A stretch of 64,000 nucleotides of DNA from positions 8,213 through 72,212 of the forward strand of contig JBFYQX010000005.1 of assembly GCA_041302525.1 (NCBI GenBank). The letters run 5' to 3'. A model generated the notes under the pieces. The model saw only the letters and a program-made list of their open reading frames with translations. It made no database searches and was not told the DNA's origin. Shown in pieces: positions 12,018-21,514 of this stretch. Made by a program: the position numbers and the translations under genes. This DNA comes from Candidatus Bipolaricaulota bacterium (GTDB lineage: Bacteria; Bipolaricaulota; Bipolaricaulia; UBA7950; UBA9294). The first letter of the stretch is position 1, and each line of letters begins with the position of its first letter.

Positions 12018-13847
12018 ATGTGGATCCGAGCGGGTGGCCTTGTGTGTTTGCTGGTGGCATCGGGTCTAGCGGGCGTTGCCATCGACGCGACGTCCCCGGC
12101 CGCTGCATGGACGCCGCCGGGCCTGCCGGAGGTCCGGGCGGGACTCGATGGGCTTCCGTGGGGTCAGTTCGTCGAGACGTCCTATGTCCTGTACATCCTC
12201 CGGTTTCCCGAAGCGGTCACGCGAATGGGGATGGCGACTGCCTTGGGCGTGCGGAATGACCGACTGAACGACTACTCGGACGCCTACGTGCGCGAGACGA
12301 TGGAGATTGAGTCGGAGATCCTTGGCCGGCTGCGCGCGTTCGATCGAGCGAGTCTCTCGCCGGCCGAGCAGGCGGTCTACGACGCCAGCGCGTGGTACTG
12401 GGACGATCTGGTACGCGCTCACCGGTTTGCCTACTGCGACTACCCGGTGAGCCATCTCTTCGTCACCAGTCTCGATCAGCTGGTGTTCGAGCTCCTCACG
12501 GAGATTCACCCGCTCGCGACCGCGGGCGACGCCGAGGACTACGTTCTGCGGCTCGAGCAGGTCGGGACGCAGTTCGACGGGATCCTCGACGCGCTCGATC
12601 GTCGGGCCGACGCGGGTGTGATTGTCCCGCAGCGGGTGATCGACTGGGCGACATACGGCATGCGTTCCCTGGCCTACGGATCGGCGCCGTCTAGCCCGTA
12701 CTTCGTCCGGCTGCGTGATGCGCTGCCGGCGATGGCCGGCCTCTCCCCAGACCGCGCCGACGCGCTCCGCGGCAGAGCCGAAACCGCGGTGAGCGACGTC
12801 GTCATTCCCGCCTACCGCCGTCTGCTGTCGAAGCTTTCGGGCCTGCGCAGCCAGGCGCCCGAGGTCGGGGTCTGGCGCGTCCCGGATGGTCGGGCGTACT
12901 ACGAGCACTTGCTGAGGCACTTCACGGGCCTCGACCAGAGCGCCGCGGACGTCCACGACCTGGGTCTGCGTGAGGTCGCCAGGATCCACGACGAAGTCCG
13001 CTCCTGCGCCAACGCTCTTGGATACCCCGCGGAATCGTTGACGATCGCCGCGCTCTTTGCGGCCGTCGAGCGGGACGGCGGAGCCTTGGTCGGCGAGGAG
13101 ATCCTCCGCGAGTACGAGCGGCTGATCGATCGAGCCGCGGTGGATGCGCTCGCTTTCCTGCCTGCGTTGCCGTCGACCGCTGTGGTCGTCCGGCCGGATC
13201 CGGTGGGTGGTTTCTACCGATCGGCGCCGCGCGACGGGTCAGCGCCCGCAACGTTTGGCGCGCAGACAACGGGGACGCAACCTCGGTTCACGATGCCAAC
13301 GCTCGCGTACCACGAGACGATTCCCGGTCATCACGTCCAGATCGCGCTGGCTCAGGAAATGGACCTGCCGCTTCTCCTCCGGGAGACCGCCTTCCTCGGA
13401 TTCACCGAAGGGTGGGCGCTCTACGCCGAGCGGCTGGCGGCCGAAGCGGGTTGGTACGCGGACGATCCGTATGGGAACCTCGGTCGGTTGCAGTTCGAGC
13501 TCATGCGCGCGGCGCGGCTTGCCGTTGACACCGGAATCCACGCCGTCGGCTGGGGCTACGACGAGGCTTTGGTCTGGTATCAAGAGGCGACGGGACGGTC
13601 GCCGCAGCTTGCGCAGCAAGACGTGTACCGCTACGCCGCCTGGCCCGGCCAGGCGGTGTCGTACGCCGTTGGCTACCTTGAGTTGCTCGCACTGCGCGAC
13701 GCCACGCGGTCCGCGCTCGGCGACAGGTTCGACCTCACTGCGTTCCATCGGGCCGTCCTCGCGCAGGGGAACGTCCCGCTCGCTGTTCTTGCGGGCGCCA
13801 TGGCGGGATGGATCGCGGCGTCTGCGGCGGAAACGGCGTTGCCGTAG
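12018..13847 (+). CDS. DUF885 family protein (putative secreted metallopeptidase-like), 609 aa
   Basis: Signal peptide (MWIRAGGLVCLLVASGLAGVA) and an HExxH-like YHETIPGHH motif. Overall it matches the DUF885 architecture and is a paralog of 31413-33224. Confidence 0.8.
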   Translation: MWIRAGGLVCLLVASGLAGVAIDATSPAAAWTPPGLPEVRAGLDGLPWGQFVETSYVLYILRFPEAVTRMGMATALGVRNDRLNDYSDAYVRETMEIESEILGRLRAFDRASLSPAEQAVYDASAWYWDDLVRAHRFAYCDYPVSHLFVTSLDQLVFELLTEIHPLATAGDAEDYVLRLEQVGTQFDGILDALDRRADAGVIVPQRVIDWATYGMRSLAYGSAPSSPYFVRLRDALPAMAGLSPDRADALRGRAETAVSDVVIPAYRRLLSKLSGLRSQAPEVGVWRVPDGRAYYEHLLRHFTGLDQSAADVHDLGLREVARIHDEVRSCANALGYPAESLTIAALFAAVERDGGALVGEEILREYERLIDRAAVDALAFLPALPSTAVVVRPDPVGGFYRSAPRDGSAPATFGAQTTGTQPRFTMPTLAYHETIPGHHVQIALAQEMDLPLLLRETAFLGFTEGWALYAERLAAEAGWYADDPYGNLGRLQFELMRAARLAVDTGIHAVGWGYDEALVWYQEATGRSPQLAQQDVYRYAAWPGQAVSYAVGYLELLALRDATRSALGDRFDLTAFHRAVLAQGNVPLAVLAGAMAGWIAASAAETALP

Positions 13848-13856
13848 GGGCCGGAT

Positions 13857-14831
13857 CTACCGCAGCGGGTCGACGTGCTTGCGCCACAGGGCCAGCGCGT
13901 GGTCGCGCGGGTCCACAACGTCGATGCCTTGGTTGGCGAAGAAAACGTTCGTGTTCTCGAGGTCGCGCACGAGGAGTTCCAGCGCGTCGTCGTTGTAGCG
14001 GGGATCGACGGCCTGCGGGAAGTCGATGATCGTCACGCGGCCGTTCCAGTAGAGCATGTTGTACGGCGAGAGATCGGCGTGGACGCGGTGGTGCGTGAGG
14101 AACAGGGCGACGTTCTCGAGGAGTCGCTTGTAGATCCGCTCGGCATCCGCGGCGTCGAGCGACACGCCGACGAGCACCGGAGCGGGATGCTCGGCGTCGC
14201 CGACGTAGTCCATGAGGATCACGGGGCCTGTGCGCTCGATGGGGCATGGCACGTCGCAACCGGCGGCGTGGAGGTTCTCGAGGGTTCTCATCTCGTGGGC
14301 GATCCAGGCGCTGAACTTGTGCGTGCGGCCGTGCTGTGTCTTCTTTCCGAGAGCACGGAGGACGCGCGCATCCGGTCGCGCGCCGCGAGCGCGGCCCTGC
14401 TGGTAGACTTCGTCGCGCCGGAAGCTGCGCGTTTCGAGCGGCCGGTAGACCTTGGCCGCCACAAGATCATGGCCGAGCGATGGGTGCGCCCGGCAGCAGT
14501 AGACGACCGCCTCCTTGCCGCTCTTGATCGGGCGGACGACCTCGAGCAGGAGGTGCTCGTCGATCAGGGGAGCAAGATGCTGGAGGAGCTCCTCTTCCAC
14601 CGTCTTTTCGTCGGGTGCAGGGACCTTCGCCGGCGCGTTCTTGCGCGGCGGCCGACGATGCGACTCGTCGAGCTCTTCGTAGTGGCGGATGACGTTTCCT
14701 CCCCGGGTCTGCGCGCGGGCAGCCTCTGCTACGCAGTATACCCGGCCAGGCGCCGCAACCGGGCGGGAACCTTGGGGCTTCCAGCGCGGTATGATACGGC
14801 GACGTTCCCGCAGGAAGGAGAAACATGACAA
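13857..14831 (-). CDS. RIO-type (RIO1 family) serine protein kinase
   Basis: Gly-loop IKSGKEAVVY, catalytic HADLSPYNML and metal-binding IIDFPQAV. The start is uncertain: TTG at 14831 would clash with the divergent neighbour's ATG, and GTG at 14601 (VEEELLQ) gives a ~248-aa protein. Confidence 0.7.
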   Translation of the reverse strand: MSCFSFLRERRRIIPRWKPQGSRPVAAPGRVYCVAEAARAQTRGGNVIRHYEELDESHRRPPRKNAPAKVPAPDEKTVEEELLQHLAPLIDEHLLLEVVRPIKSGKEAVVYCCRAHPSLGHDLVAAKVYRPLETRSFRRDEVYQQGRARGARPDARVLRALGKKTQHGRTHKFSAWIAHEMRTLENLHAAGCDVPCPIERTGPVILMDYVGDAEHPAPVLVGVSLDAADAERIYKRLLENVALFLTHHRVHADLSPYNMLYWNGRVTIIDFPQAVDPRYNDDALELLVRDLENTNVFFANQGIDVVDPRDHALALWRKHVDPLR

Positions 14832-15892
14832 GGAAGCTCGCTCTCTGTGTCTTTTGGGTGATGGGTGCCGCCGCGGCCGCGGTCGCTGGACCTCAGCTTG
14901 CCGTGGACCTCGCGAACTACGCGTTTCCCGACACGGTCGAAGGGATTGCCGTCGCCCACACCTTCACCCTCACCAACAGCGGGAATCAGGAACTGGTCAT
15001 CGAGAGCGCGAGACCGGGGTGCGAGTGTGTGAGCGTTCAACTCGCCAAGAGCCGCCTTCAGCCGGGCGAGTCGATCGGGCTGTACGCCCTGCTCGACACG
15101 CAGAACCTGTCTGGCAAGACCACGCGCTCGATCACCGTGACGTCCAACGACCCGGGCCCGTATGGCGACTACAAGCGCAACCTGTCCCTTGTCGGGGTCA
15201 TTCTGGCCCGGCAGCCGTATCAGCGATCGGTGGGCGAGGCGTTCGGCAGCCGGCTCCTCCTGCTCGATGTCCGTAGTCCCGGGGACTACGCGGCGGGACA
15301 CCTCGTGGGCGCGCTCAACGTTCCCGAAAACCAGGTGGCGAGCCTGGCCGCGACGCTACCGGCCGGTACGCGCGTCGTCTTCTACGATCAGCAAGGAGCA
15401 AGCGCGACGCAACGCGCGGTGGCCCAGTCGCTGCACGGCGGCGGCCTGGACGACGTGTGGGCTGTGCGCGGCGGTTTTGCCACTTGGCAGAAGGAGTACG
15501 GAGCCCAGCGGCTGATGGCCGGCTCGCAGGCGACGTGGCAGTTCCTCGACCTGTCGGGCGCGCGTGCCTACACCTCGTCCTCGTCCTACGGCGTCTACGA
15601 CGTCAACCAGCTCGCATCCGACGCCGTGTGGATCGACATGCGGTCCGCGGCGGCGTTTGCTGCCGGCCACCTCGTCGGCGCGCTGAACCTCGCGGAGTCG
15701 TCGATCCAGGCGTTCATCGAGACGCTGCCGCGGTCGACGCCCGTCGTCGTCTACAGCGACGATGGTCGCGACAGCGATCGGGTCGTCGAGAACCTCTGGC
15801 GAAGGGGAAGTCGGGCGAAGAGCCTACTCGGCGGGCTGGCCGAGTGGCGGAAGCAGCACGGGGACGAGCTTATCATTCAGTCCTCAAGCTAG
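14825..15892 (+). CDS. secreted DUF1573-like CxC beta-sandwich domain + two rhodanese-homology domains, all lacking the catalytic Cys
   Basis: Signal peptide. The DUF1573-like region has the motif SARPGCECVSV. Two rhodanese folds carry Asp or Ser at the active-site position (VVFYDQQGAS and VVVYSDDGRDS). Confidence 0.75.
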   Translation: MTRKLALCVFWVMGAAAAAVAGPQLAVDLANYAFPDTVEGIAVAHTFTLTNSGNQELVIESARPGCECVSVQLAKSRLQPGESIGLYALLDTQNLSGKTTRSITVTSNDPGPYGDYKRNLSLVGVILARQPYQRSVGEAFGSRLLLLDVRSPGDYAAGHLVGALNVPENQVASLAATLPAGTRVVFYDQQGASATQRAVAQSLHGGGLDDVWAVRGGFATWQKEYGAQRLMAGSQATWQFLDLSGARAYTSSSSYGVYDVNQLASDAVWIDMRSAAAFAAGHLVGALNLAESSIQAFIETLPRSTPVVVYSDDGRDSDRVVENLWRRGSRAKSLLGGLAEWRKQHGDELIIQSSS

Positions 15893-17076
15893 CGCGACGA
15901 GCGCGCCGAGCGGCTGCCTGCGTCAGCTTCGCCGCCTTGCGGCGATGTGAGGCCGTCGTGGGCCTTTGCGAGCCACGCCGCGATCTCGATTCCCTGCGGG
16001 CACTTCGTCTCGCACGCGCGGCAGCCGATGCACCGATCGGCTCGCGCCTCGGGCTTCATGAACCGCTCGTAGCTCGCCCGCGCGCGGTCGAGGTCGCCGT
16101 AGGCTGTCCCGTTGTTGTAGATCTCGAAGACTCGCGGGATGGCGACTCCTTGCGGGCACGGCTCGCAGTAGCGGCATCCGGTGCAAGGGATGGGGGCGAG
16201 CGCCCGGTACGCATCGCGGACGCGCCCGACGAGCGCAAGGTCTGCGGCACGGAGCAGGCCGACGCCGGAGTGCTCGGCGCTCGCGAGGTTCTCCTCGACG
16301 TGGCGCATCGTGGACATGCCGGACAGCAGAAACGAGACGTCGGGATCGTTCCACACCCACTGGAGTGCCCAATCGGCCGGCGATCGCTTCGTCGTCGCCT
16401 CGTCCCAGATCTCGGCCACCGTTCGAGGTGCTGGGAGGGTGAGCGAACCTCCGCGGAGAGGTTCCATCACGACGACGGCAAGGCCGCGCTCGGCCGCGTA
16501 GCGGAGCCCGGCTGTGCCCGCCTGGTACTCGACGTCCATGTAGTTGTATTGGATCTGACAGAAGGTCCAGTCGTACGTGTCGACGATCTTGCGGAACGTG
16601 TCGAGGTCGTCGTGAAACGAGAAGCCGAGGTGGCCGATCCGCCCTTCGGCGAGCGCACGCTCCGCCCAGTCGAGCACGCCGAGATCGTAGAGCTTCGGCC
16701 ACTGCACGCGATTGAGTCCGTGCAGGAGGTAGAAGTCAACGCTCTCGGTCGCAAGGCGCGCGCGCTGCTCGTCGAGAAAACGATCGAAGTCGTCGGTCCT
16801 CTCAACGAGCCAAGAGGGCATCTTGGTGGCGACGCGAACGCGCGCGCGGTATCCATCGCTCAGGCATCGTCCGAGAAACCGCTCCGACTGCTCGCCGTGG
16901 TAGGACCACGCGGTGTCGACGTAGTTCACGCCGCGGTCGATGGCGGTGCGCACCATCTGCGTCGCAAGCGGCTCGTCGATCCTTGCATGGTCGCCCCCGA
17001 GAGTCGGCAGCCGCATGGCGCCGAATCCGAGCGCGGAGGGCCTCCAGCCGAGTCGGCCGAATCGTCGGGTCTTCAT
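15889..17076 (-). CDS. aldo/keto reductase with C-terminal 4Fe-4S ferredoxin-type domain (COG1453-like)
   Basis: AKR core (GVNYVDTAWSYHGEQSE...) followed by two CxxCxxC(P) clusters (CTGCRYCEPCP and CIGCRACETKCP). ATG at 17076 with a GGGAGG RBS. Confidence 0.85.
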   Translation of the reverse strand: MKTRRFGRLGWRPSALGFGAMRLPTLGGDHARIDEPLATQMVRTAIDRGVNYVDTAWSYHGEQSERFLGRCLSDGYRARVRVATKMPSWLVERTDDFDRFLDEQRARLATESVDFYLLHGLNRVQWPKLYDLGVLDWAERALAEGRIGHLGFSFHDDLDTFRKIVDTYDWTFCQIQYNYMDVEYQAGTAGLRYAAERGLAVVVMEPLRGGSLTLPAPRTVAEIWDEATTKRSPADWALQWVWNDPDVSFLLSGMSTMRHVEENLASAEHSGVGLLRAADLALVGRVRDAYRALAPIPCTGCRYCEPCPQGVAIPRVFEIYNNGTAYGDLDRARASYERFMKPEARADRCIGCRACETKCPQGIEIAAWLAKAHDGLTSPQGGEADAGSRSARSSR

Positions 17077-17169
17077 GGTCGCCTCCCGTTCGATCCTCAC
17101 GCATCGCGCGATGCCGATCAAGAGAAACGCCCCGGCCGTGCCGGGGCGGAGGCGATGAGATCTGCCAAG

Positions 17170-18120
17170 CTAGAGCGGCCGCACCGGTTCGCAGATGTCG
17201 ACGAGCCACTTCTTCTCCGGATGCGTGTCCGGGTCGTTGAGGTATACCTCGTAGCACATCCGATGGTCGGGCTGGTAGCCGCTTGTCGGCATCCACTCCA
17301 TCAGCTTGTCCCACGCCTCGCCGAACTGGGTCACGTCCATCTCGACGTGGGCGACGGCGAACAGCCCTCCAGGGATCTTCATCGTGCCGATGTCCCCGTC
17401 GACCTTCGTCCCCGGCGGAACGGTGAGGCACGCGTCGGAGCGCAGCTTCGACGCGTCGGTCACCTCGGGGCTGTCGTGGTAGACGGCGAGCGACTTCGTC
17501 TCCGGGAAACGGATGAGGCTGCGCGGGCCGGCCCATTTGAACACGCGATCGAACGCCTCGCCGATCTTGTTGTACGCACCGATGTGTCGCGCGTAGACGA
17601 CGTTCCACTCCGGCATCTGCTTCACTTCCACACTGAACTTCATCGGGATCCTCCTCGTGTCTTCGATGGCCGCAGTGTAGGGCGATGAGGGCGAGGAGTC
17701 TCTCTCTGTCTTGCTTTTCGCTTGCCCGTCCTTGCTCTTGACTTGGCGGATCTTGCGCACGGCGTCGCGCCCGCCCTTTCGGAACTCGGACGCGCTCATC
17801 GCGAAGGCGTTGCGAAACTCGCGCGCGAAAGCGGAGGGAGAGGAGTACCCGCATGCCACCGCGATCTCGGTGATCGATGCGCGCGGATTGTTCAGGAGGC
17901 GGGCGGCTGCCGCGCCGACCCGCATGCGGCGGACGAAGTCGTTGAGCGTCTCGCCGACCACCGACTTGAACACGCGGTGGAAGTGAAACGGCGAGAAGCT
18001 GGCGACCTGGGCGAGCGTCTCCAGCCGCAGATCGCCCGCGAGGTTCGCCTGGATGTAGTCCATGACGCGGTTGATCCGCCCCACGTACTCCCGTCTTCGC
18101 AGCTCCTCCTGCTCGATCAT
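17170..18120 (-). CDS. AraC-family transcriptional regulator with C-terminal GyrI-like effector-binding domain
   Basis: N-terminal AraC HTH (FSPFHFHRVFKSVVGETLNDFVRRMR) and a C-terminal GyrI-like domain. ATG at 18120 (MIEQEEL). Confidence 0.85.
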   Translation of the reverse strand: MIEQEELRRREYVGRINRVMDYIQANLAGDLRLETLAQVASFSPFHFHRVFKSVVGETLNDFVRRMRVGAAAARLLNNPRASITEIAVACGYSSPSAFAREFRNAFAMSASEFRKGGRDAVRKIRQVKSKDGQAKSKTERDSSPSSPYTAAIEDTRRIPMKFSVEVKQMPEWNVVYARHIGAYNKIGEAFDRVFKWAGPRSLIRFPETKSLAVYHDSPEVTDASKLRSDACLTVPPGTKVDGDIGTMKIPGGLFAVAHVEMDVTQFGEAWDKLMEWMPTSGYQPDHRMCYEVYLNDPDTHPEKKWLVDICEPVRPL

Positions 18121-18130
18121 GGTCGTCTTC

Positions 18131-18496
18131 CTATCGCGCGCTGCACAGCCTGAGCCGGTTGCCGACGTTGTCGAGCAACAGGGCGAAAGAGCCGAACACG
18201 TCGGAGATCCCTGTCTTCGGCACGAGTGTCTCTCCTCCGTCGGCCACGGTCGCGGCGAGCGCGGCGTCGATGTCGTCGGCCGCGAAGTGCAGGATCGGGC
18301 CCGTTGCAGACGGGCTCTCAGCCTGTGGCCCCGACATGAGTCTGCCGCCCCGGCCGTCGGGTGTCCTGAGCAACGCGTCCTCATGCATGCCCGGGACCGC
18401 CTCGAAGCGCCAGCCGACGATCGACGCGAAGAAGCGCTGCAAGGCCGCGAGGTCGAGGGTGGGCAGTTCGATGTGAGCGAGCCCGTCGTGTGACAT
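18131..18496 (-). CDS. VOC family protein (glyoxalase/bleomycin-resistance fold)
   Basis: ATG at 18496 with a CAGGAGGA RBS. Small VOC fold, lying immediately downstream of the AraC/GyrI regulator. Confidence 0.8.
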   Translation of the reverse strand: MSHDGLAHIELPTLDLAALQRFFASIVGWRFEAVPGMHEDALLRTPDGRGGRLMSGPQAESPSATGPILHFAADDIDAALAATVADGGETLVPKTGISDVFGSFALLLDNVGNRLRLCSAR

Positions 18497-18565
18497 GGCA
18501 TCCTCCTGTTCTCCGGATCCCGGCGTCATCATACGGATCGTCGGAGGTTGCCAGCCGAAGCTGCC

Positions 18566-19276
18566 CTACGGAGCACGGAGAATCCCCTCGCCGAATGTAG
18601 CGTCCCAACCGGTGAGCCCCCCGTCAAGGTAGAGCACGTTCGGGAGTCCCGCGGCAAGCAAGAGCGCGCCCGCCGCGCGCCCGCCGTCGCTGTCGGCGCC
18701 GTAGAGGATGATCGGGACGTCGTGCGGAAGGCGAGATGCCGACGAGGCGGGCGCCTCGCGGATCGTCGCGAGGGGAACGTTCACCGCGCCGAACAGGTGC
18801 GCGACGGCGTACTCCTCCGGACTCCGAACGTCGATCAGCAGGTAGAACACGAGCTTGAGGTCGCTCGCTGAGATGGCCGGCACGGTCGGCGCGACGTCGG
18901 CGATGGTCACGTCGATGCGCAGGACGAACGCTGGATGGCTCGGGTCATTGGAGTGTAGGGTGATCGTTCGCGTCACGGTCCCCGTGAACCCGGCCGTGTT
19001 CACGGTGGCATCCACGTTCACCGACTCGCCCGGCGCGAGGTCGCGCTGAGTCAATGCCGCGGTCGTGCAGCCGCACGACGTGCGCACGCTCGAAATCGCC
19101 AGGGTCTCGTCGCCGGCGTTGGCGACGACGAACGTGTGGGTGACGAGCGAGCCCGACTGCACGGTCACGGCGTACGTGGCGTTGTCAGCCTGCAGGACCG
19201 GGACGGCGGACGCGGCGATGCAGAACGTCCCGATTCCCAGCAAAATGATGATCGATGCTCTCATCGCGGCCTCCAT
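18566..19276 (-). CDS. secreted DUF1573-like CxC domain + one rhodanese-homology domain lacking the catalytic Cys; paralog of 14825-15892
   Basis: Signal peptide, a DUF1573-like region (VRTSCGCTTA) and a rhodanese fold with ILYGADSDGGRA at the active-site loop. Homologous to the other copy along its full length. Confidence 0.75.
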   Translation of the reverse strand: MEAAMRASIIILLGIGTFCIAASAVPVLQADNATYAVTVQSGSLVTHTFVVANAGDETLAISSVRTSCGCTTAALTQRDLAPGESVNVDATVNTAGFTGTVTRTITLHSNDPSHPAFVLRIDVTIADVAPTVPAISASDLKLVFYLLIDVRSPEEYAVAHLFGAVNVPLATIREAPASSASRLPHDVPIILYGADSDGGRAAGALLLAAGLPNVLYLDGGLTGWDATFGEGILRAP

Positions 19277-19414
19277 CCCCGGCTCCTAGCGTCGGGTCGC
19301 GCCTGATTGGCCTCTGCCGACGAATGTAGCACGTCCGCGTCGGCAAAGCAGGAGGTACGCGGCGGGGCGTGGGTGTGGGCGGACACCGTGCTGTCGGTTG
19401 CGGGAAACGCAGAA

Positions 19415-19452
19415 GAGGGGAGACCGATGGTGCGGGATCGGCAACTCCCCTC
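19415..19452 (+). promoter_or_regulatory. compound stem-loop in the 430-nt divergent intergenic region upstream of the ABC-F gene
   Basis: GAGGGGAG (19415-19422) pairs with CTCCCCTC (19445-19452), and an inner CCGAT/ATCGG pair sits inside. A second hairpin lies at 19315-19345 (TGCCGACG ... CGTCGGCA). Confidence 0.4.
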
Positions 19453-19708
19453 CCTGCAAGCTGCGCCCGGTCCTGTGTGAGCGCTCCCGCTTGTGCGGGA
19501 TGGCGCAGTCTCCCGTCAGCTCGTCTCGACCGCGTCCCGCGGTTGTGTGGACCGTGTGAAGACGCCTGACGGTCGGAAGAACCAAAAGGCCGTAGAGAAA
19601 CGGCGTTGCCTTCCTGCAGGACCGCCCGGTGCCGTCGCCGCGCCGCGGAAACGAACCGGCGACGACGCGTTACCATGCTCCGACGGCGTTCAGGGAGGCA
19701 GGCACGAC

Positions 19709-21514
19709 GTGGCGATCCTCGCGGTTCGAGATCTAGAGAAGACCTATGCCTCTCACACGCTGTTCGAGGGGCTGTCGATCGCGTTTCATGCCGGCGAGCG
19801 GGTCGGCTTGATTGGCCCGAACGGCGCGGGGAAGTCGACCCTGTTGCGCATCCTGGCGGGCGAGGAGTCCGCGGACGCAGGCACCGTCGAGCGGTCCAAG
19901 GGCGCCCGGATCGGTTACCTGCCTCAGGCTGACGACGTGGGGCAGGGCACCGTCGAGGACGCGCTCCAGCGCGCGCTCGCCGACGTCCCGATGGAGGACT
20001 ACGAGCGCCCGGCGAGGGTTCGCCAGATGCTCCGGCGCTTAGGTTTCGACCATGGCGACGCGCGGGTCGCCACCCTGTCGGGCGGATGGCAGAAACGCCT
20101 GGCCATCGGGTGTCAGCTCGCCCGAGAACCGCACCTGCTTCTGATGGATGAGCCGACGAACCACCTCGACATCGCGGGCATCCGCTGGCTCGAGACGTTC
20201 CTCGAGCGAGAAGAACTGGCGCTGGTTGTCACGAGCCACGACCGCACGTTTCTCGAGCGTGTGGCCAACCGCATCGTCGAGATCAACGCGCGCTACGCGG
20301 GAGGGTTCTTCTCAAGCGCCGGCAAGTACAGCGACTTTCTCGAGCGGCGCGAGGCGTTCCTCGCGGCCGAGGACACGGAACGAAGAGCGCTGGCCGGCGC
20401 GGTCCGCCGCGAGATTGACTGGCTGCGCCGCGGACCCTCCGCGCGAGCGACCAAGGCGGCATCGCGCATCGAGGAAGCACACGACCAGATCGCCCGGCTG
20501 GCGGACGCAGAGCGGCGCGCCGCGTCCGCATCGGGACTCGAGATCGACTTCGCCGCGAGCGGCCGCCGGACGAACGACTTGATCGTTGCCCGTGGCATCG
20601 GAAAGTCGTTCGGCGCGCGGCGCCTGTTTGATGGCCTCAACGTGCACGTGCGGCGTGGCGACCGACTTGGGATCGCGGGGAACAACGCGAGCGGCAAGAC
20701 GACGCTCCTCAAGACGCTTGCCGGGCTCGTCGCGCCGGATGAGGGCCACGTGAAGCATGCGTGGGAGCTTCGGTTCGCGTTGTTCGACCAGCAGCGCGAG
20801 CAGCTGAATCCGCACGAGCGGCTGCGCCGCGCTCTCTGCCCGAGCGGCGACACGGTCTCCTACCTCGGGCGGGCCACGCACATCGTCCCGTGGGCGCGCC
20901 GGTTCGGCTTCCGCGCCGACCAGCTCGACATCCCGGTTGGCGAACTCTCGGGCGGTGAGAAGGCACGCGTGTTGATGGCGCTCCTGATTCGCGAGCCCGT
21001 CGACGTCCTGCTGCTGGACGAACCGACCAACGACCTCGACCTCTCGTCGGTCGAGCTGCTCGAGGAGGCGCTTGACGAGTTCCCAGGTGCCGTCGTGTTG
21101 ATCACGCACGATCGTCACATGCTCGACCGGCTGTCCAGCCAGCTCATCGGGCTGCATGGCGACGGGGCGTGGGGCAGCTACGGGAGCGTCGAGCAGTGGC
21201 TGCTTGCCGACGCCGAGCGTCAGGCGGCGCGCCGGGTGCCAGACGCCGAGACCCCGCGTGCCGCGGCGCCTGCTCGTCCTACGAAGCGGGGCTTGACGTA
21301 CCTCGAGAAGAAGGAGTGGGACGAGATGGAGGCGCGGATTCTCGCTGCCGAGGAGAAGGCGGCGGCTCTCCAGTCGCAGCTCGACGATCCTGCCGTGGCC
21401 AGCGACCACGAGAAGCTGCACACGGCGTACGAGGCCCATCGCGCCGCGCAGGCCGACATCGACGCCCTCTACGGACGTTGGCAGGAGCTCGACGCCAAGC
21501 GCAACGCCGGCTAG
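19709..21514 (+). CDS. ABC-F family ATPase (Uup/YheS-like, with C-terminal coiled-coil domain), 601 aa
   Basis: Two ABC NBDs, each with Walker A/B and the LSGG signature, plus a C-terminal coiled coil. GTG at 19709 has a strong AGGGAGG RBS; the in-frame upstream extension has poor GC3. Confidence 0.9.
   Translation: MAILAVRDLEKTYASHTLFEGLSIAFHAGERVGLIGPNGAGKSTLLRILAGEESADAGTVERSKGARIGYLPQADDVGQGTVEDALQRALADVPMEDYERPARVRQMLRRLGFDHGDARVATLSGGWQKRLAIGCQLAREPHLLLMDEPTNHLDIAGIRWLETFLEREELALVVTSHDRTFLERVANRIVEINARYAGGFFSSAGKYSDFLERREAFLAAEDTERRALAGAVRREIDWLRRGPSARATKAASRIEEAHDQIARLADAERRAASASGLEIDFAASGRRTNDLIVARGIGKSFGARRLFDGLNVHVRRGDRLGIAGNNASGKTTLLKTLAGLVAPDEGHVKHAWELRFALFDQQREQLNPHERLRRALCPSGDTVSYLGRATHIVPWARRFGFRADQLDIPVGELSGGEKARVLMALLIREPVDVLLLDEPTNDLDLSSVELLEEALDEFPGAVVLITHDRHMLDRLSSQLIGLHGDGAWGSYGSVEQWLLADAERQAARRVPDAETPRAAAPARPTKRGLTYLEKKEWDEMEARILAAEEKAAALQSQLDDPAVASDHEKLHTAYEAHRAAQADIDALYGRWQELDAKRNAG

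Follow-up and report, generated by a model that had tools for sequence, protein, structure and literature searches.

The stretch of DNA analyzed here (the window; 64,000 nucleotides of contig JBFYQX010000005.1, from a Candidatus Bipolaricaulota bacterium) contains two related genes, A and B, each encoding a protein with a predicted signal peptide, an N-terminal DUF1573 domain of immunoglobulin (Ig)-like type and one or two C-terminal rhodanese-homology domains. Both open reading frames (ORFs) lie where an earlier note on this DNA had placed them, and all the peptides quoted in that note are present. The features of the two genes are listed below, where the catalytic-Cys column is the position of the active-site cysteine in a hidden Markov model (HMM) alignment.

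14825–15892, plus strand: gene A, 355 amino acids (aa), with a signal peptide, a DUF1573 Ig-like domain containing CEC and two Cys-less rhodanese-homology domains (ORF, Pfam).
14825–14887, plus strand: predicted Sec signal peptide of A, MTRKLALCVFWVMGAAAAAVA, with cleavage before GP (heuristic; AxA/AP-type site kept in orthologues).
14915–15151, plus strand: DUF1573/HYDIN-VesB-like Ig domain of A, residues 31–109 (Pfam).
15020–15028, plus strand: C66-E67-C68 of A, the sole cysteines of the mature protein.
15227–15523, plus strand: rhodanese-homology domain 1 of A, with Asp188 (15386–15388) in the catalytic-Cys column and loop YDQQGAS (HMM column, GlpE control).
15599–15883, plus strand: rhodanese-homology domain 2 of A, with Ser311 (15755–15757) in the catalytic-Cys column and loop YSDDGRDS (HMM column and GlpE 1gmx alignment).
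18566–19276, minus strand: gene B, 236 aa, with a signal peptide, a DUF1573 Ig-like domain containing CGC and one Cys-less rhodanese-homology domain (ORF, Pfam).
19205–19276, minus strand: predicted signal peptide of B, with cleavage at ASA/VP after residue 24 (heuristic; N-terminal helix 2–19 in the model).
18914–19165, minus strand: DUF1573 Ig-like β-sandwich of B, residues 38–121 (Pfam, Foldseek).
19067–19075, minus strand: C68-G69-C70 of B, inside the family motif TSCGCTT.
18569–18874, minus strand: rhodanese-homology domain of B, with Gly193 (18698–18700) in the catalytic-Cys column and loop YGADSDGGR (HMM column).

The DUF1573 profile (PF07610) matches A at 56.0 bits and B at 73.1 bits, both passing the gathering score of 26.1, and the rhodanese profile (PF00581, cut-off 22.2) matches A at 93 bits in two stretches and B at 62 bits in one. 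These matches bear out the architecture proposed earlier from the letters alone, in which a CxC-bearing β-sandwich precedes a pair of rhodanese domains in A and a single one in B. The two proteins share 36% identity over 221 residues covering the DUF1573 domain and the first rhodanese domain (E = 1e-28). In the AlphaFold2 model of B, with a mean predicted local distance difference test score (pLDDT) of 89.7, a confident β-sandwich (strands within residues 28–125, pLDDT about 90) is accompanied by a confident rhodanese domain, and C68-G-C70 sits between strands 59–66 and 71–75 of the sandwich. The best Foldseek match of the DUF1573 part is 2qsv (E = 2.4e-8), an uncharacterized protein of P. gingivalis, followed by VesB and the PapD-like/Ig-like domains of HYDIN. 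The rhodanese part resembles small domains such as Alr3790 and BH2092. A sequence search with the DUF1573 domain against the PDB gave zero matches up to E = 10, and the link to 2qsv is thus one of fold only.

The residues at the catalytic position of the rhodanese domains should be noted, since they bear on whether these proteins can act as sulfurtransferases. All rhodanese domains of the family were aligned to one HMM together with Escherichia coli GlpE as a control, whose Cys65 is taken by us to mark the catalytic-Cys column. This column is occupied by Asp188 in domain 1 of A, Ser311 in domain 2 of A and Gly193 in B. A direct alignment of GlpE (1gmx) to A, obtained from the PDB search, also places Ser311 opposite Cys65, in agreement with the HMM. 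The earlier claim that the active-site cysteine is replaced by Asp or Ser accordingly holds for both domains of A, but the residue in B is Gly. The choice of alignment is of no consequence for the absence itself: outside the signal peptides, which have one cysteine each, the cysteines of A are C66 and C68 and those of B are C68 and C70, so that the rhodanese domains, having no cysteine, offer no catalytic Cys under any alignment. Though recognized by the PF00581 profile, the three domains lack the active-site Cys of the CxxGxR[ST]-type loop. Since a persulfide intermediate cannot form without any cysteine, none of them can be a Cys-dependent sulfurtransferase; they are predicted to be non-catalytic, as in the earlier note, and thiosulfate:cyanide sulfurtransferase activity is not expected of them.

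Contrarily to the rhodanese loop, the CxC motif of the DUF1573 domain is retained throughout. C68 and C70 of B are invariant among 60 homologues, and a CxC is found in every one of the approximately 160 non-redundant family proteins covered by our residue census, with a conservation of the motif and its two neighbors on each side of 0.94–1.0 in all subgroups. The 47 weakest homologues listed, mostly proteins with DUF1573 only, also contain it without exception, although this count is biased because the search favors shared words. In B the motif is CGC within VRTSCGCTTA, whereas in A it is CEC within the drifted sequence SARPGCECVSV. DUF1573 is listed as a selenoprotein family with UGC (U, selenocysteine) at the CxC motif (PMC9312934, PMC13188914), its selenoproteins having originally been reported as OS_HP2 (PMC1976440). 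The NCBIfam OS_HP2 model (NF041425) scores A at 49.3 bits and B at 72.5 bits, both under the curated cut-off of 100; by these scores the two proteins are related to OS_HP2 but fall outside the curated subfamily, and they are Cys forms, not selenocysteine forms. A selenocysteine/cysteine pair at one position usually marks a redox-active residue. The CxC contains the sole cysteines of the mature proteins, is invariant in the family and is replaced by UGC in DUF1573 homologues, which suggests that it, rather than the rhodanese loop, is likely to be the reactive center of A and B.

Both proteins are probably exported. A heuristic requiring Lys or Arg in the n-region, a 12-residue hydrophobic core with a Kyte–Doolittle value of at least 2.0 and a small-x-small cleavage site is passed by A, by B and by 73 of the 76 full-length homologues, which share a conserved AxA/AP-type site. 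The signal peptides recognized in the earlier note therefore stand as predictions.

The proteins A and B belong, judging from their sequences, to an uncharacterized family spread across Bipolaricaulota. The public protein search gave 242 relatives, mostly of DUF1573 plus rhodanese architecture in 232-aa and 350-aa forms, and a scan of one genome per species gave 289 loci; among the best 80 of these, nearly all are labeled Bipolaricaulota, Acetothermia or "uncultured Thermotogae" bins. In the census, the catalytic column of the one-domain forms is occupied by Asp in 54 cases, Cys in 34, Gly in 15 and Ser in 3, and the two-domain forms are mainly Asp-Asp (27), Asp-Cys (12, with a non-canonical WCVDEDG loop) and Asp-Ser (6, the type of A). 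Lack of the rhodanese cysteine is thus the norm in the DUF1573-rhodanese family. Relatives of the Cys type, whose loop is the canonical YC-x-x-G-x-R-S, form the nearest outgroups to the Gly-type subclade that includes B; since these closest outgroups retain the loop, B may have lost an active site that its relatives keep. The conservation values within the B subclade are 0.50 for the rhodanese loop, 0.60 for the rhodanese domain and 0.75 for the DUF1573 domain. Elsewhere the loop is better conserved, reaching 0.68 among Cys-type and 0.77 among Asp-type proteins; in the latter the acidic loop, YDQDGxLSD, exceeds its own domain (0.69). A may be an old duplicate of a B-like gene or an orthologue of the distant two-rhodanese proteins; domain-level identities, all 0.32–0.36, are uninformative between the two, and in neighbor-joining bootstraps A groups with the B clade in 46% and with the distant two-domain forms in 1%.

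The sequences of the family are already public, and the family is built from known parts. Many members (P0002, P0010–P0014 and others) are publicly named "rhodanese-related sulfurtransferase", including P0002 and P0010, which have no catalytic Cys; for Cys-less members this naming is likely over-annotation. As a separate observation, assembly GCA_040960625.1 contains three B-like genes on three contigs (L005, L086, L087). It probably mixes two related genomes, since two of these genes lie in near-identical copies of the whole syntenic block.

The gene neighborhoods of distant relatives were compared by clustering all ORFs of 85 loci. The recurrent neighbor at distant loci is a protein of approximately 380 aa made up of a signal anchor, a glutaredoxin/thioredoxin (Grx/Trx)-like domain whose CPHC is invariant and a membrane domain bearing two PC motifs, also invariant. 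Pfam finds DsbD_TM and Glutaredoxin each in 21 of 22 members of this neighbor family, which the sources name "cytochrome c biogenesis protein CcdA/glutaredoxin", and its Trx-fold domain has a weak PDB match to ScsC-type proteins (E = 7e-4). At 30 of the 56 distant loci with downstream room, the Trx/DsbD_TM gene follows the family gene within 400 nt in the same orientation, and at 36 it lies within 6 kb; the adjacency is seen for one- and two-rhodanese forms alike. A profile search of the partner family listed 120 matches, all of distant-clade types, and is uninformative on close-clade genomes. An ArsR-family gene occurs within 4 kb at 17 of 66 distant loci. The α3 CxC[DE] motif is characteristic of As(III)/metal-sensing ArsR/SmtB proteins, whereas persulfide sensors show a two-Cys pattern; this CxC[DE] site is present in 16 of 24 ArsR-family neighbors, one of the 24 being from a close-clade locus. 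Genes for Thioredoxin_3, ACR3-type, LMW-PTP ArsC and ArsP_1 proteins also recur near family loci.

In a close-clade locus, L009, an arsenic-type island (14855–20686) adjoins gene A. It contains ACR3, an ArsR gene with an LCVCEL site, a lone exported Trx-like gene akin to the N-terminal domain of the partner, a CcdA-like membrane gene, a Thioredoxin_3-like gene and a permease; apart from the ArsR and Trx-like genes, these labels were read off the sequence alone.

Taken together, the explanation that we favor, at a probability of roughly 0.55, is that A and B are members of an exported family reactive at its CxC, that their rhodanese domains are inactive and that the gene order around them is specific to one clade. 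The CxC pair would form an extracytoplasmic dithiol/disulfide site, serving as a redox relay or binding a thiophilic ligand, for instance sulfane sulfur or a soft metal(loid). A pathway of the DsbD/CcdA type may keep the pair reduced via an exported Trx-fold domain; we infer this because in most of the phylum the family genes lie directly upstream of the gene for the exported Grx/Trx-like and DsbD_TM protein, often with an ArsR gene whose product has the metal(loid)-type CxC site. The Cys-less rhodanese domains would then act as docking or specificity modules. In the case of B, the Gly-type subclade is nested among relatives with canonical CxxGxRS, and its loop now evolves with more freedom than the remainder of the protein.

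Several observations weigh against this explanation. The redox role of the CxC is read from conservation, from the selenocysteine/cysteine pairing and from gene neighborhood. No Trx/DsbD_TM, ArsR or Thioredoxin_3 gene was found in the 64-kb window by tblastn and profile searches, and the Trx/DsbD_TM gene is missing from the 6-kb range at 20 of the 56 distant loci. The relative arrangement of the two domains in the model of B is uncertain (predicted template modeling score, 0.57). The persistence of the gene block around A and B amid local rearrangements, described below, is also mild evidence for selection on the arrangement.

A bolder extension, which we consider speculative and rather unlikely, is that proteins of the A/B type and the exported Trx-fold/DsbD_TM protein, whose gene is their neighbor in most Bipolaricaulota, constitute a previously unrecognized envelope thiol system. 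The Ig-like CxC (UGC in selenoprotein relatives) would be a carrier resembling nDsbD or SoxY for electrons, sulfane sulfur or As(III)-type ligands, with the Cys-less rhodanese domain giving specificity; the two members of the window clade would have been uncoupled from the partner and would lie beside a detoxification cassette controlled by an AraC/GyrI regulator.

The genes between and beside A and B are as follows, with the one terminator-like element among them.

13857–14831, minus strand: RIO1-type kinase gene, divergent from A and belonging to the older syntenic block (Pfam RIO1).
15889–17076, minus strand: aldo/keto reductase (AKR) with a C-terminal 2x[4Fe-4S] ferredoxin domain, 395 aa, with eight Cys at 298–359 (Pfam Aldo_ket_red, Fer4_9).
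17128–17148, minus strand: terminator-like hairpin of nine GC pairs in the gap that separates the AraC/GyrI stop from the AKR start, with TTTCTCTT, a T-rich tail, after it.
17170–18120, minus strand: regulator with an AraC-type helix-turn-helix (HTH) and a GyrI-like effector-binding domain, 316 aa, starting MIEQEEL (Pfam HTH_18, GyrI-like).
18131–18496, minus strand: VOC/glyoxalase-like gene, 121 aa (Pfam Glyoxalase_6 at 25 bits, barely over the cut-off); AGGAGG precedes the ATG at 18496.

Five genes, A and four on the minus strand, thus lie between the RIO1-type kinase gene (13857–14831, minus) and an ABC-F ORF (19493–21514, plus). The minus-strand genes are co-directional in the order B, VOC, AraC/GyrI and AKR, whereas A is convergent with AKR, their stop codons overlapping at 15889–15892. 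The earlier description of two paralogs flanking a cassette on the opposite strand is therefore correct for A but not for B, which is upstream of VOC-AraC-AKR on the same strand. The VOC gene is 69 nt downstream of B, and B has a GGAG ribosome-binding site 7 nt ahead of its ATG. The true starts of VOC, AraC and AKR are 18496, 18120 and 17076; near-identical public contigs of metagenome-assembled genomes give matching lengths (236, 121, 316, 395 and 355 aa for B, VOC, AraC, AKR and A). Both parts of the regulator architecture, an AraC HTH and a C-terminal GyrI-like domain, are present (HTH_18, 76.7 bits; GyrI-like, 116.6 bits; Cass2, 78.3 bits), and the public protein P0241 is 100% identical to it. 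The overlapping stops of A and AKR leave no space for terminators, and in relatives the two genes overlap by up to 17 nt or are up to 76 nt apart. A 743-aa ORF (15457–17688, plus) antisense to AKR and AraC was rejected as an artefact of the 68% GC content, like other long antisense ORFs; the GC content at third codon positions (GC3) is approximately 0.83–0.90 in the real genes of the region.

The distribution of this arrangement was examined by tblastn of the VOC, AraC, AKR, RIO1 and ABC-F proteins of the window against all family loci. The five-gene block occurs only at loci where B is at least 53% identical, and none of the 73 more distant family loci has the VOC, AraC, AKR cassette within 10 kb. 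The flanking arrangement expected in relatives is thus kept in one clade and absent from the more distant loci. Within the clade, B-VOC-AraC-AKR with convergent A is present at all informative loci (L001, L003, L005, L009, L010, L011/L088, L087, L089 and L090), and the members are broadly syntenic, with ABC-F, HAD, RIO1, DUF885 and PALP in common. The block outlasts local rearrangements such as insertion or absence of a DJ-1 gene, an ars island and DUF885 or PCMT swaps. In other Bipolaricaulota (L091 and L092; AraC 60–64% identical), a VOC-AraC/GyrI-GyrI-AKR-AKR-RIO1-PCMT block is found without any DUF1573-rhodanese gene. There the second AKR-ferredoxin gene overlaps the RIO1 kinase gene behind it by 4 nt (L091, 8996–10968; L092, 6703–8675), which suggests an AKR-RIO1 operon in these distant genomes. 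In the window clade, gene A sits between AKR and RIO1 in the opposite orientation.

Since the cassette with RIO1 exists in distant Bipolaricaulota without a DUF1573-rhodanese gene, it is the older unit, to which B was added upstream and A between AKR and RIO1. This order of events speaks against the duplication followed by cassette insertion that the earlier note had offered. GC content, GC skew and GC1/2/3 are even from 13 to 22 kb, with a GC3 of 0.83–0.87 in every gene, so that nothing in the region looks recently foreign; recent duplication or foreign insertion was rejected on this ground. The placement of A and B around the cassette is accordingly best described, from its distribution, as a lineage-specific gene order.

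The other reading offered in the earlier note appears unlikely to us. In it, A and B would bind or sense outside the cytoplasm and form one functional unit with AraC/GyrI, VOC and AKR-ferredoxin, a response system for xenobiotics or electrophiles. It would account for the block being in every informative clade locus and staying while the flanks change, and for the co-directional position of B only 69 nt from VOC. However, the clade is broadly syntenic, so shared ancestry explains this conservation; the cassette is missing from all 73 distant loci, the cassette and RIO1 occur without A or B in other Bipolaricaulota, and in L087 an MscS gene splits B from VOC. The conserved partner of the family elsewhere is the Trx-like/DsbD_TM protein. 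A third B-like paralogue in one assembly is followed by a CDF-type cation-efflux gene, and a heavy-metal P-type ATPase gene lies approximately 6 kb away. Nothing in the acidic Cys-less loops points to a site for small molecules. Transcription of B may continue into VOC-AraC, but nothing wider shows joint action of the five genes.

SoxY is Ig-like, SoxL is a rhodanese and SoxR belongs to the ArsR family. A role in sulfane-sulfur handling resembling that of SoxY and SoxL, about as improbable as the preceding explanation, would have the CxC Ig domain carry a persulfide or trisulfide, the rhodanese domain load and unload it, and thioredoxin/CcdA rescue the misoxidized carrier, A and B being degenerate, carrier-only members. 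The 34 one-domain relatives that keep a well-conserved canonical YC-x-x-G-x-R-S loop fit this role, and an Ig-like Cys carrier, a rhodanese-like domain, a periplasmic thioredoxin and a CcdA-type protein are all parts with a precedent in the Sox system, where SoxV (CcdA-like) reduces SoxW and SoxS rescues SoxYZ (PMC10451225 and references therein). In most members, however, including all three domains here, sulfur transfer by the rhodanese domain is impossible without its cysteine. The 16 of 24 neighboring ArsR proteins with α3 CxC[DE] do not have the persulfide-sensor pattern, and no sox, psr or dsr genes were seen among the neighbors in the loci.

A disulfide with CxC spacing is strained and makes a poor structural element. 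Together with the replacement of the first Cys by selenocysteine in homologues, a substitution characteristic of catalytic redox sites (PMC9312934), and with the tight, repeated adjacency to the Trx/DsbD_TM reductive module, which would be hard to explain, this makes it quite improbable that the CxC is a structural disulfide in inert, adhesin-like surface proteins with decayed enzyme domains, even though the HYDIN/VesB/PapD-like Ig group that includes DUF1573 consists mostly of structural members and the rhodanese domain and loop of the B subclade are relaxed.

Candidate signals for transcription were also noted in the region. The hairpin at 17128–17148 suggests that AKR may be separately transcribed or attenuated, and a scan of 13500–20000 for σ70 promoters found no sites. 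In the 432-nt gap between ABC-F and B, a non-coding stretch of approximately 150 nt (19405–19562, minus) ends in a GC-rich hairpin, GGGGAGTTGCCGAT...ATCGGTCTCCCC, followed by TCTTCT. It is approximately 85% conserved in L001, where B is just 67% identical, and is recognizable in L005, L011/L088, L012 and L003, with a DJ-1/PfpI gene upstream where a gene call exists. Its folding energy is −87.3 kcal/mol (z = −4.96), with covariation support for the 3′ hairpin only. The stretch could be a small RNA, a leader or a conserved terminator; Rfam gave no match in the whole window at the gathering threshold or in 14400–19800 at E up to 1, and a tRNA scan was also empty. A conserved promoter-like motif, CTGCAGAAATCGGnCCTTnGnGTACACTAATG then GGGTACATACC, lies approximately 80 nt upstream of B orthologues in most members of the clade, namely L003, L005, L008, L009, L010, L012 and L087 and has diverged in the window (approximately 19330–19400) and in L001.

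The bracketing of the AraC/VOC/AKR cassette is itself of little importance. DUF1573 is widespread without an assigned function, and our literature search found no functional study of DUF1573 or of a DUF1573-rhodanese fusion; a single paper names both Bipolaricaulota and rhodanese, once each. The invariant CxC, the selenocysteine forms, the export signals and the repeated adjacency to Trx-fold/DsbD_TM and ArsR genes suggest a single, testable function, namely redox activity or ligand binding at a site outside the cell. The annotation of many members as sulfurtransferases is a problem, since most members, including A and B, have no catalytic cysteine. In Bipolaricaulota, an uncultured phylum, the family and its partner gene represent a conserved, predicted envelope feature.

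The middle three genes of the window match a common xenobiotic/electrophile-response layout, in which an AraC-HTH plus GyrI-like regulator of the Rob/SbmC type is accompanied by VOC and AKR genes; the cassette is a module separate from A and B, and other Bipolaricaulota carry it with RIO1 but without these two genes. Compared with the DsbD/CcdA and ScsB-ScsC reducing pathways, the adjacent gene of distant relatives encodes an exported CPHC Trx-fold and a DsbD_TM domain with two PC motifs, and direct downstream linkage to such a gene is found at 30 of 56 distant loci but not in the 64-kb window. An Ig-like domain with reactive cysteines as an electron acceptor recalls nDsbD or SoxY, though that of A and B is not detectably related to either. 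The N-terminal domains of A and B, over the Pfam cut-off for DUF1573, share with the DUF1573/OS_HP2 family the TSCGCT-type motif, which is UGC in the selenoprotein forms; the rhodanese fusion is specific to the mostly Bipolaricaulota group, and the motif of A has drifted to PGCECVS.

The single-domain rhodaneses GlpE and PspE, the latter exported to the periplasm, are homologous to the domains of approximately 100 residues in A and B. Unlike these enzymes, A and B have Asp, Ser or Gly in place of Cys65 and an acidic loop instead of CxxGxR[ST], and their scores on the NCBIfam equivalog models lie far below the cut-offs, which are all 102: with the GlpE model A reaches 65 bits and B 23, and with the PspE model 33 and 21. 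A and B also resemble inactive rhodanese-homology domains, for example the Anabaena Alr3790 RHOD domain (2kl3/3hix) and the first domain of 1yt8. These best PDB relatives have the fold and rhodanese motifs in common with A and B and likewise carry a residue other than Cys in the catalytic position (YGAGDEQ, YDDGEGL), whereas the domain in A and B is predicted to be exported and is fused behind a CxC-bearing Ig-like domain.

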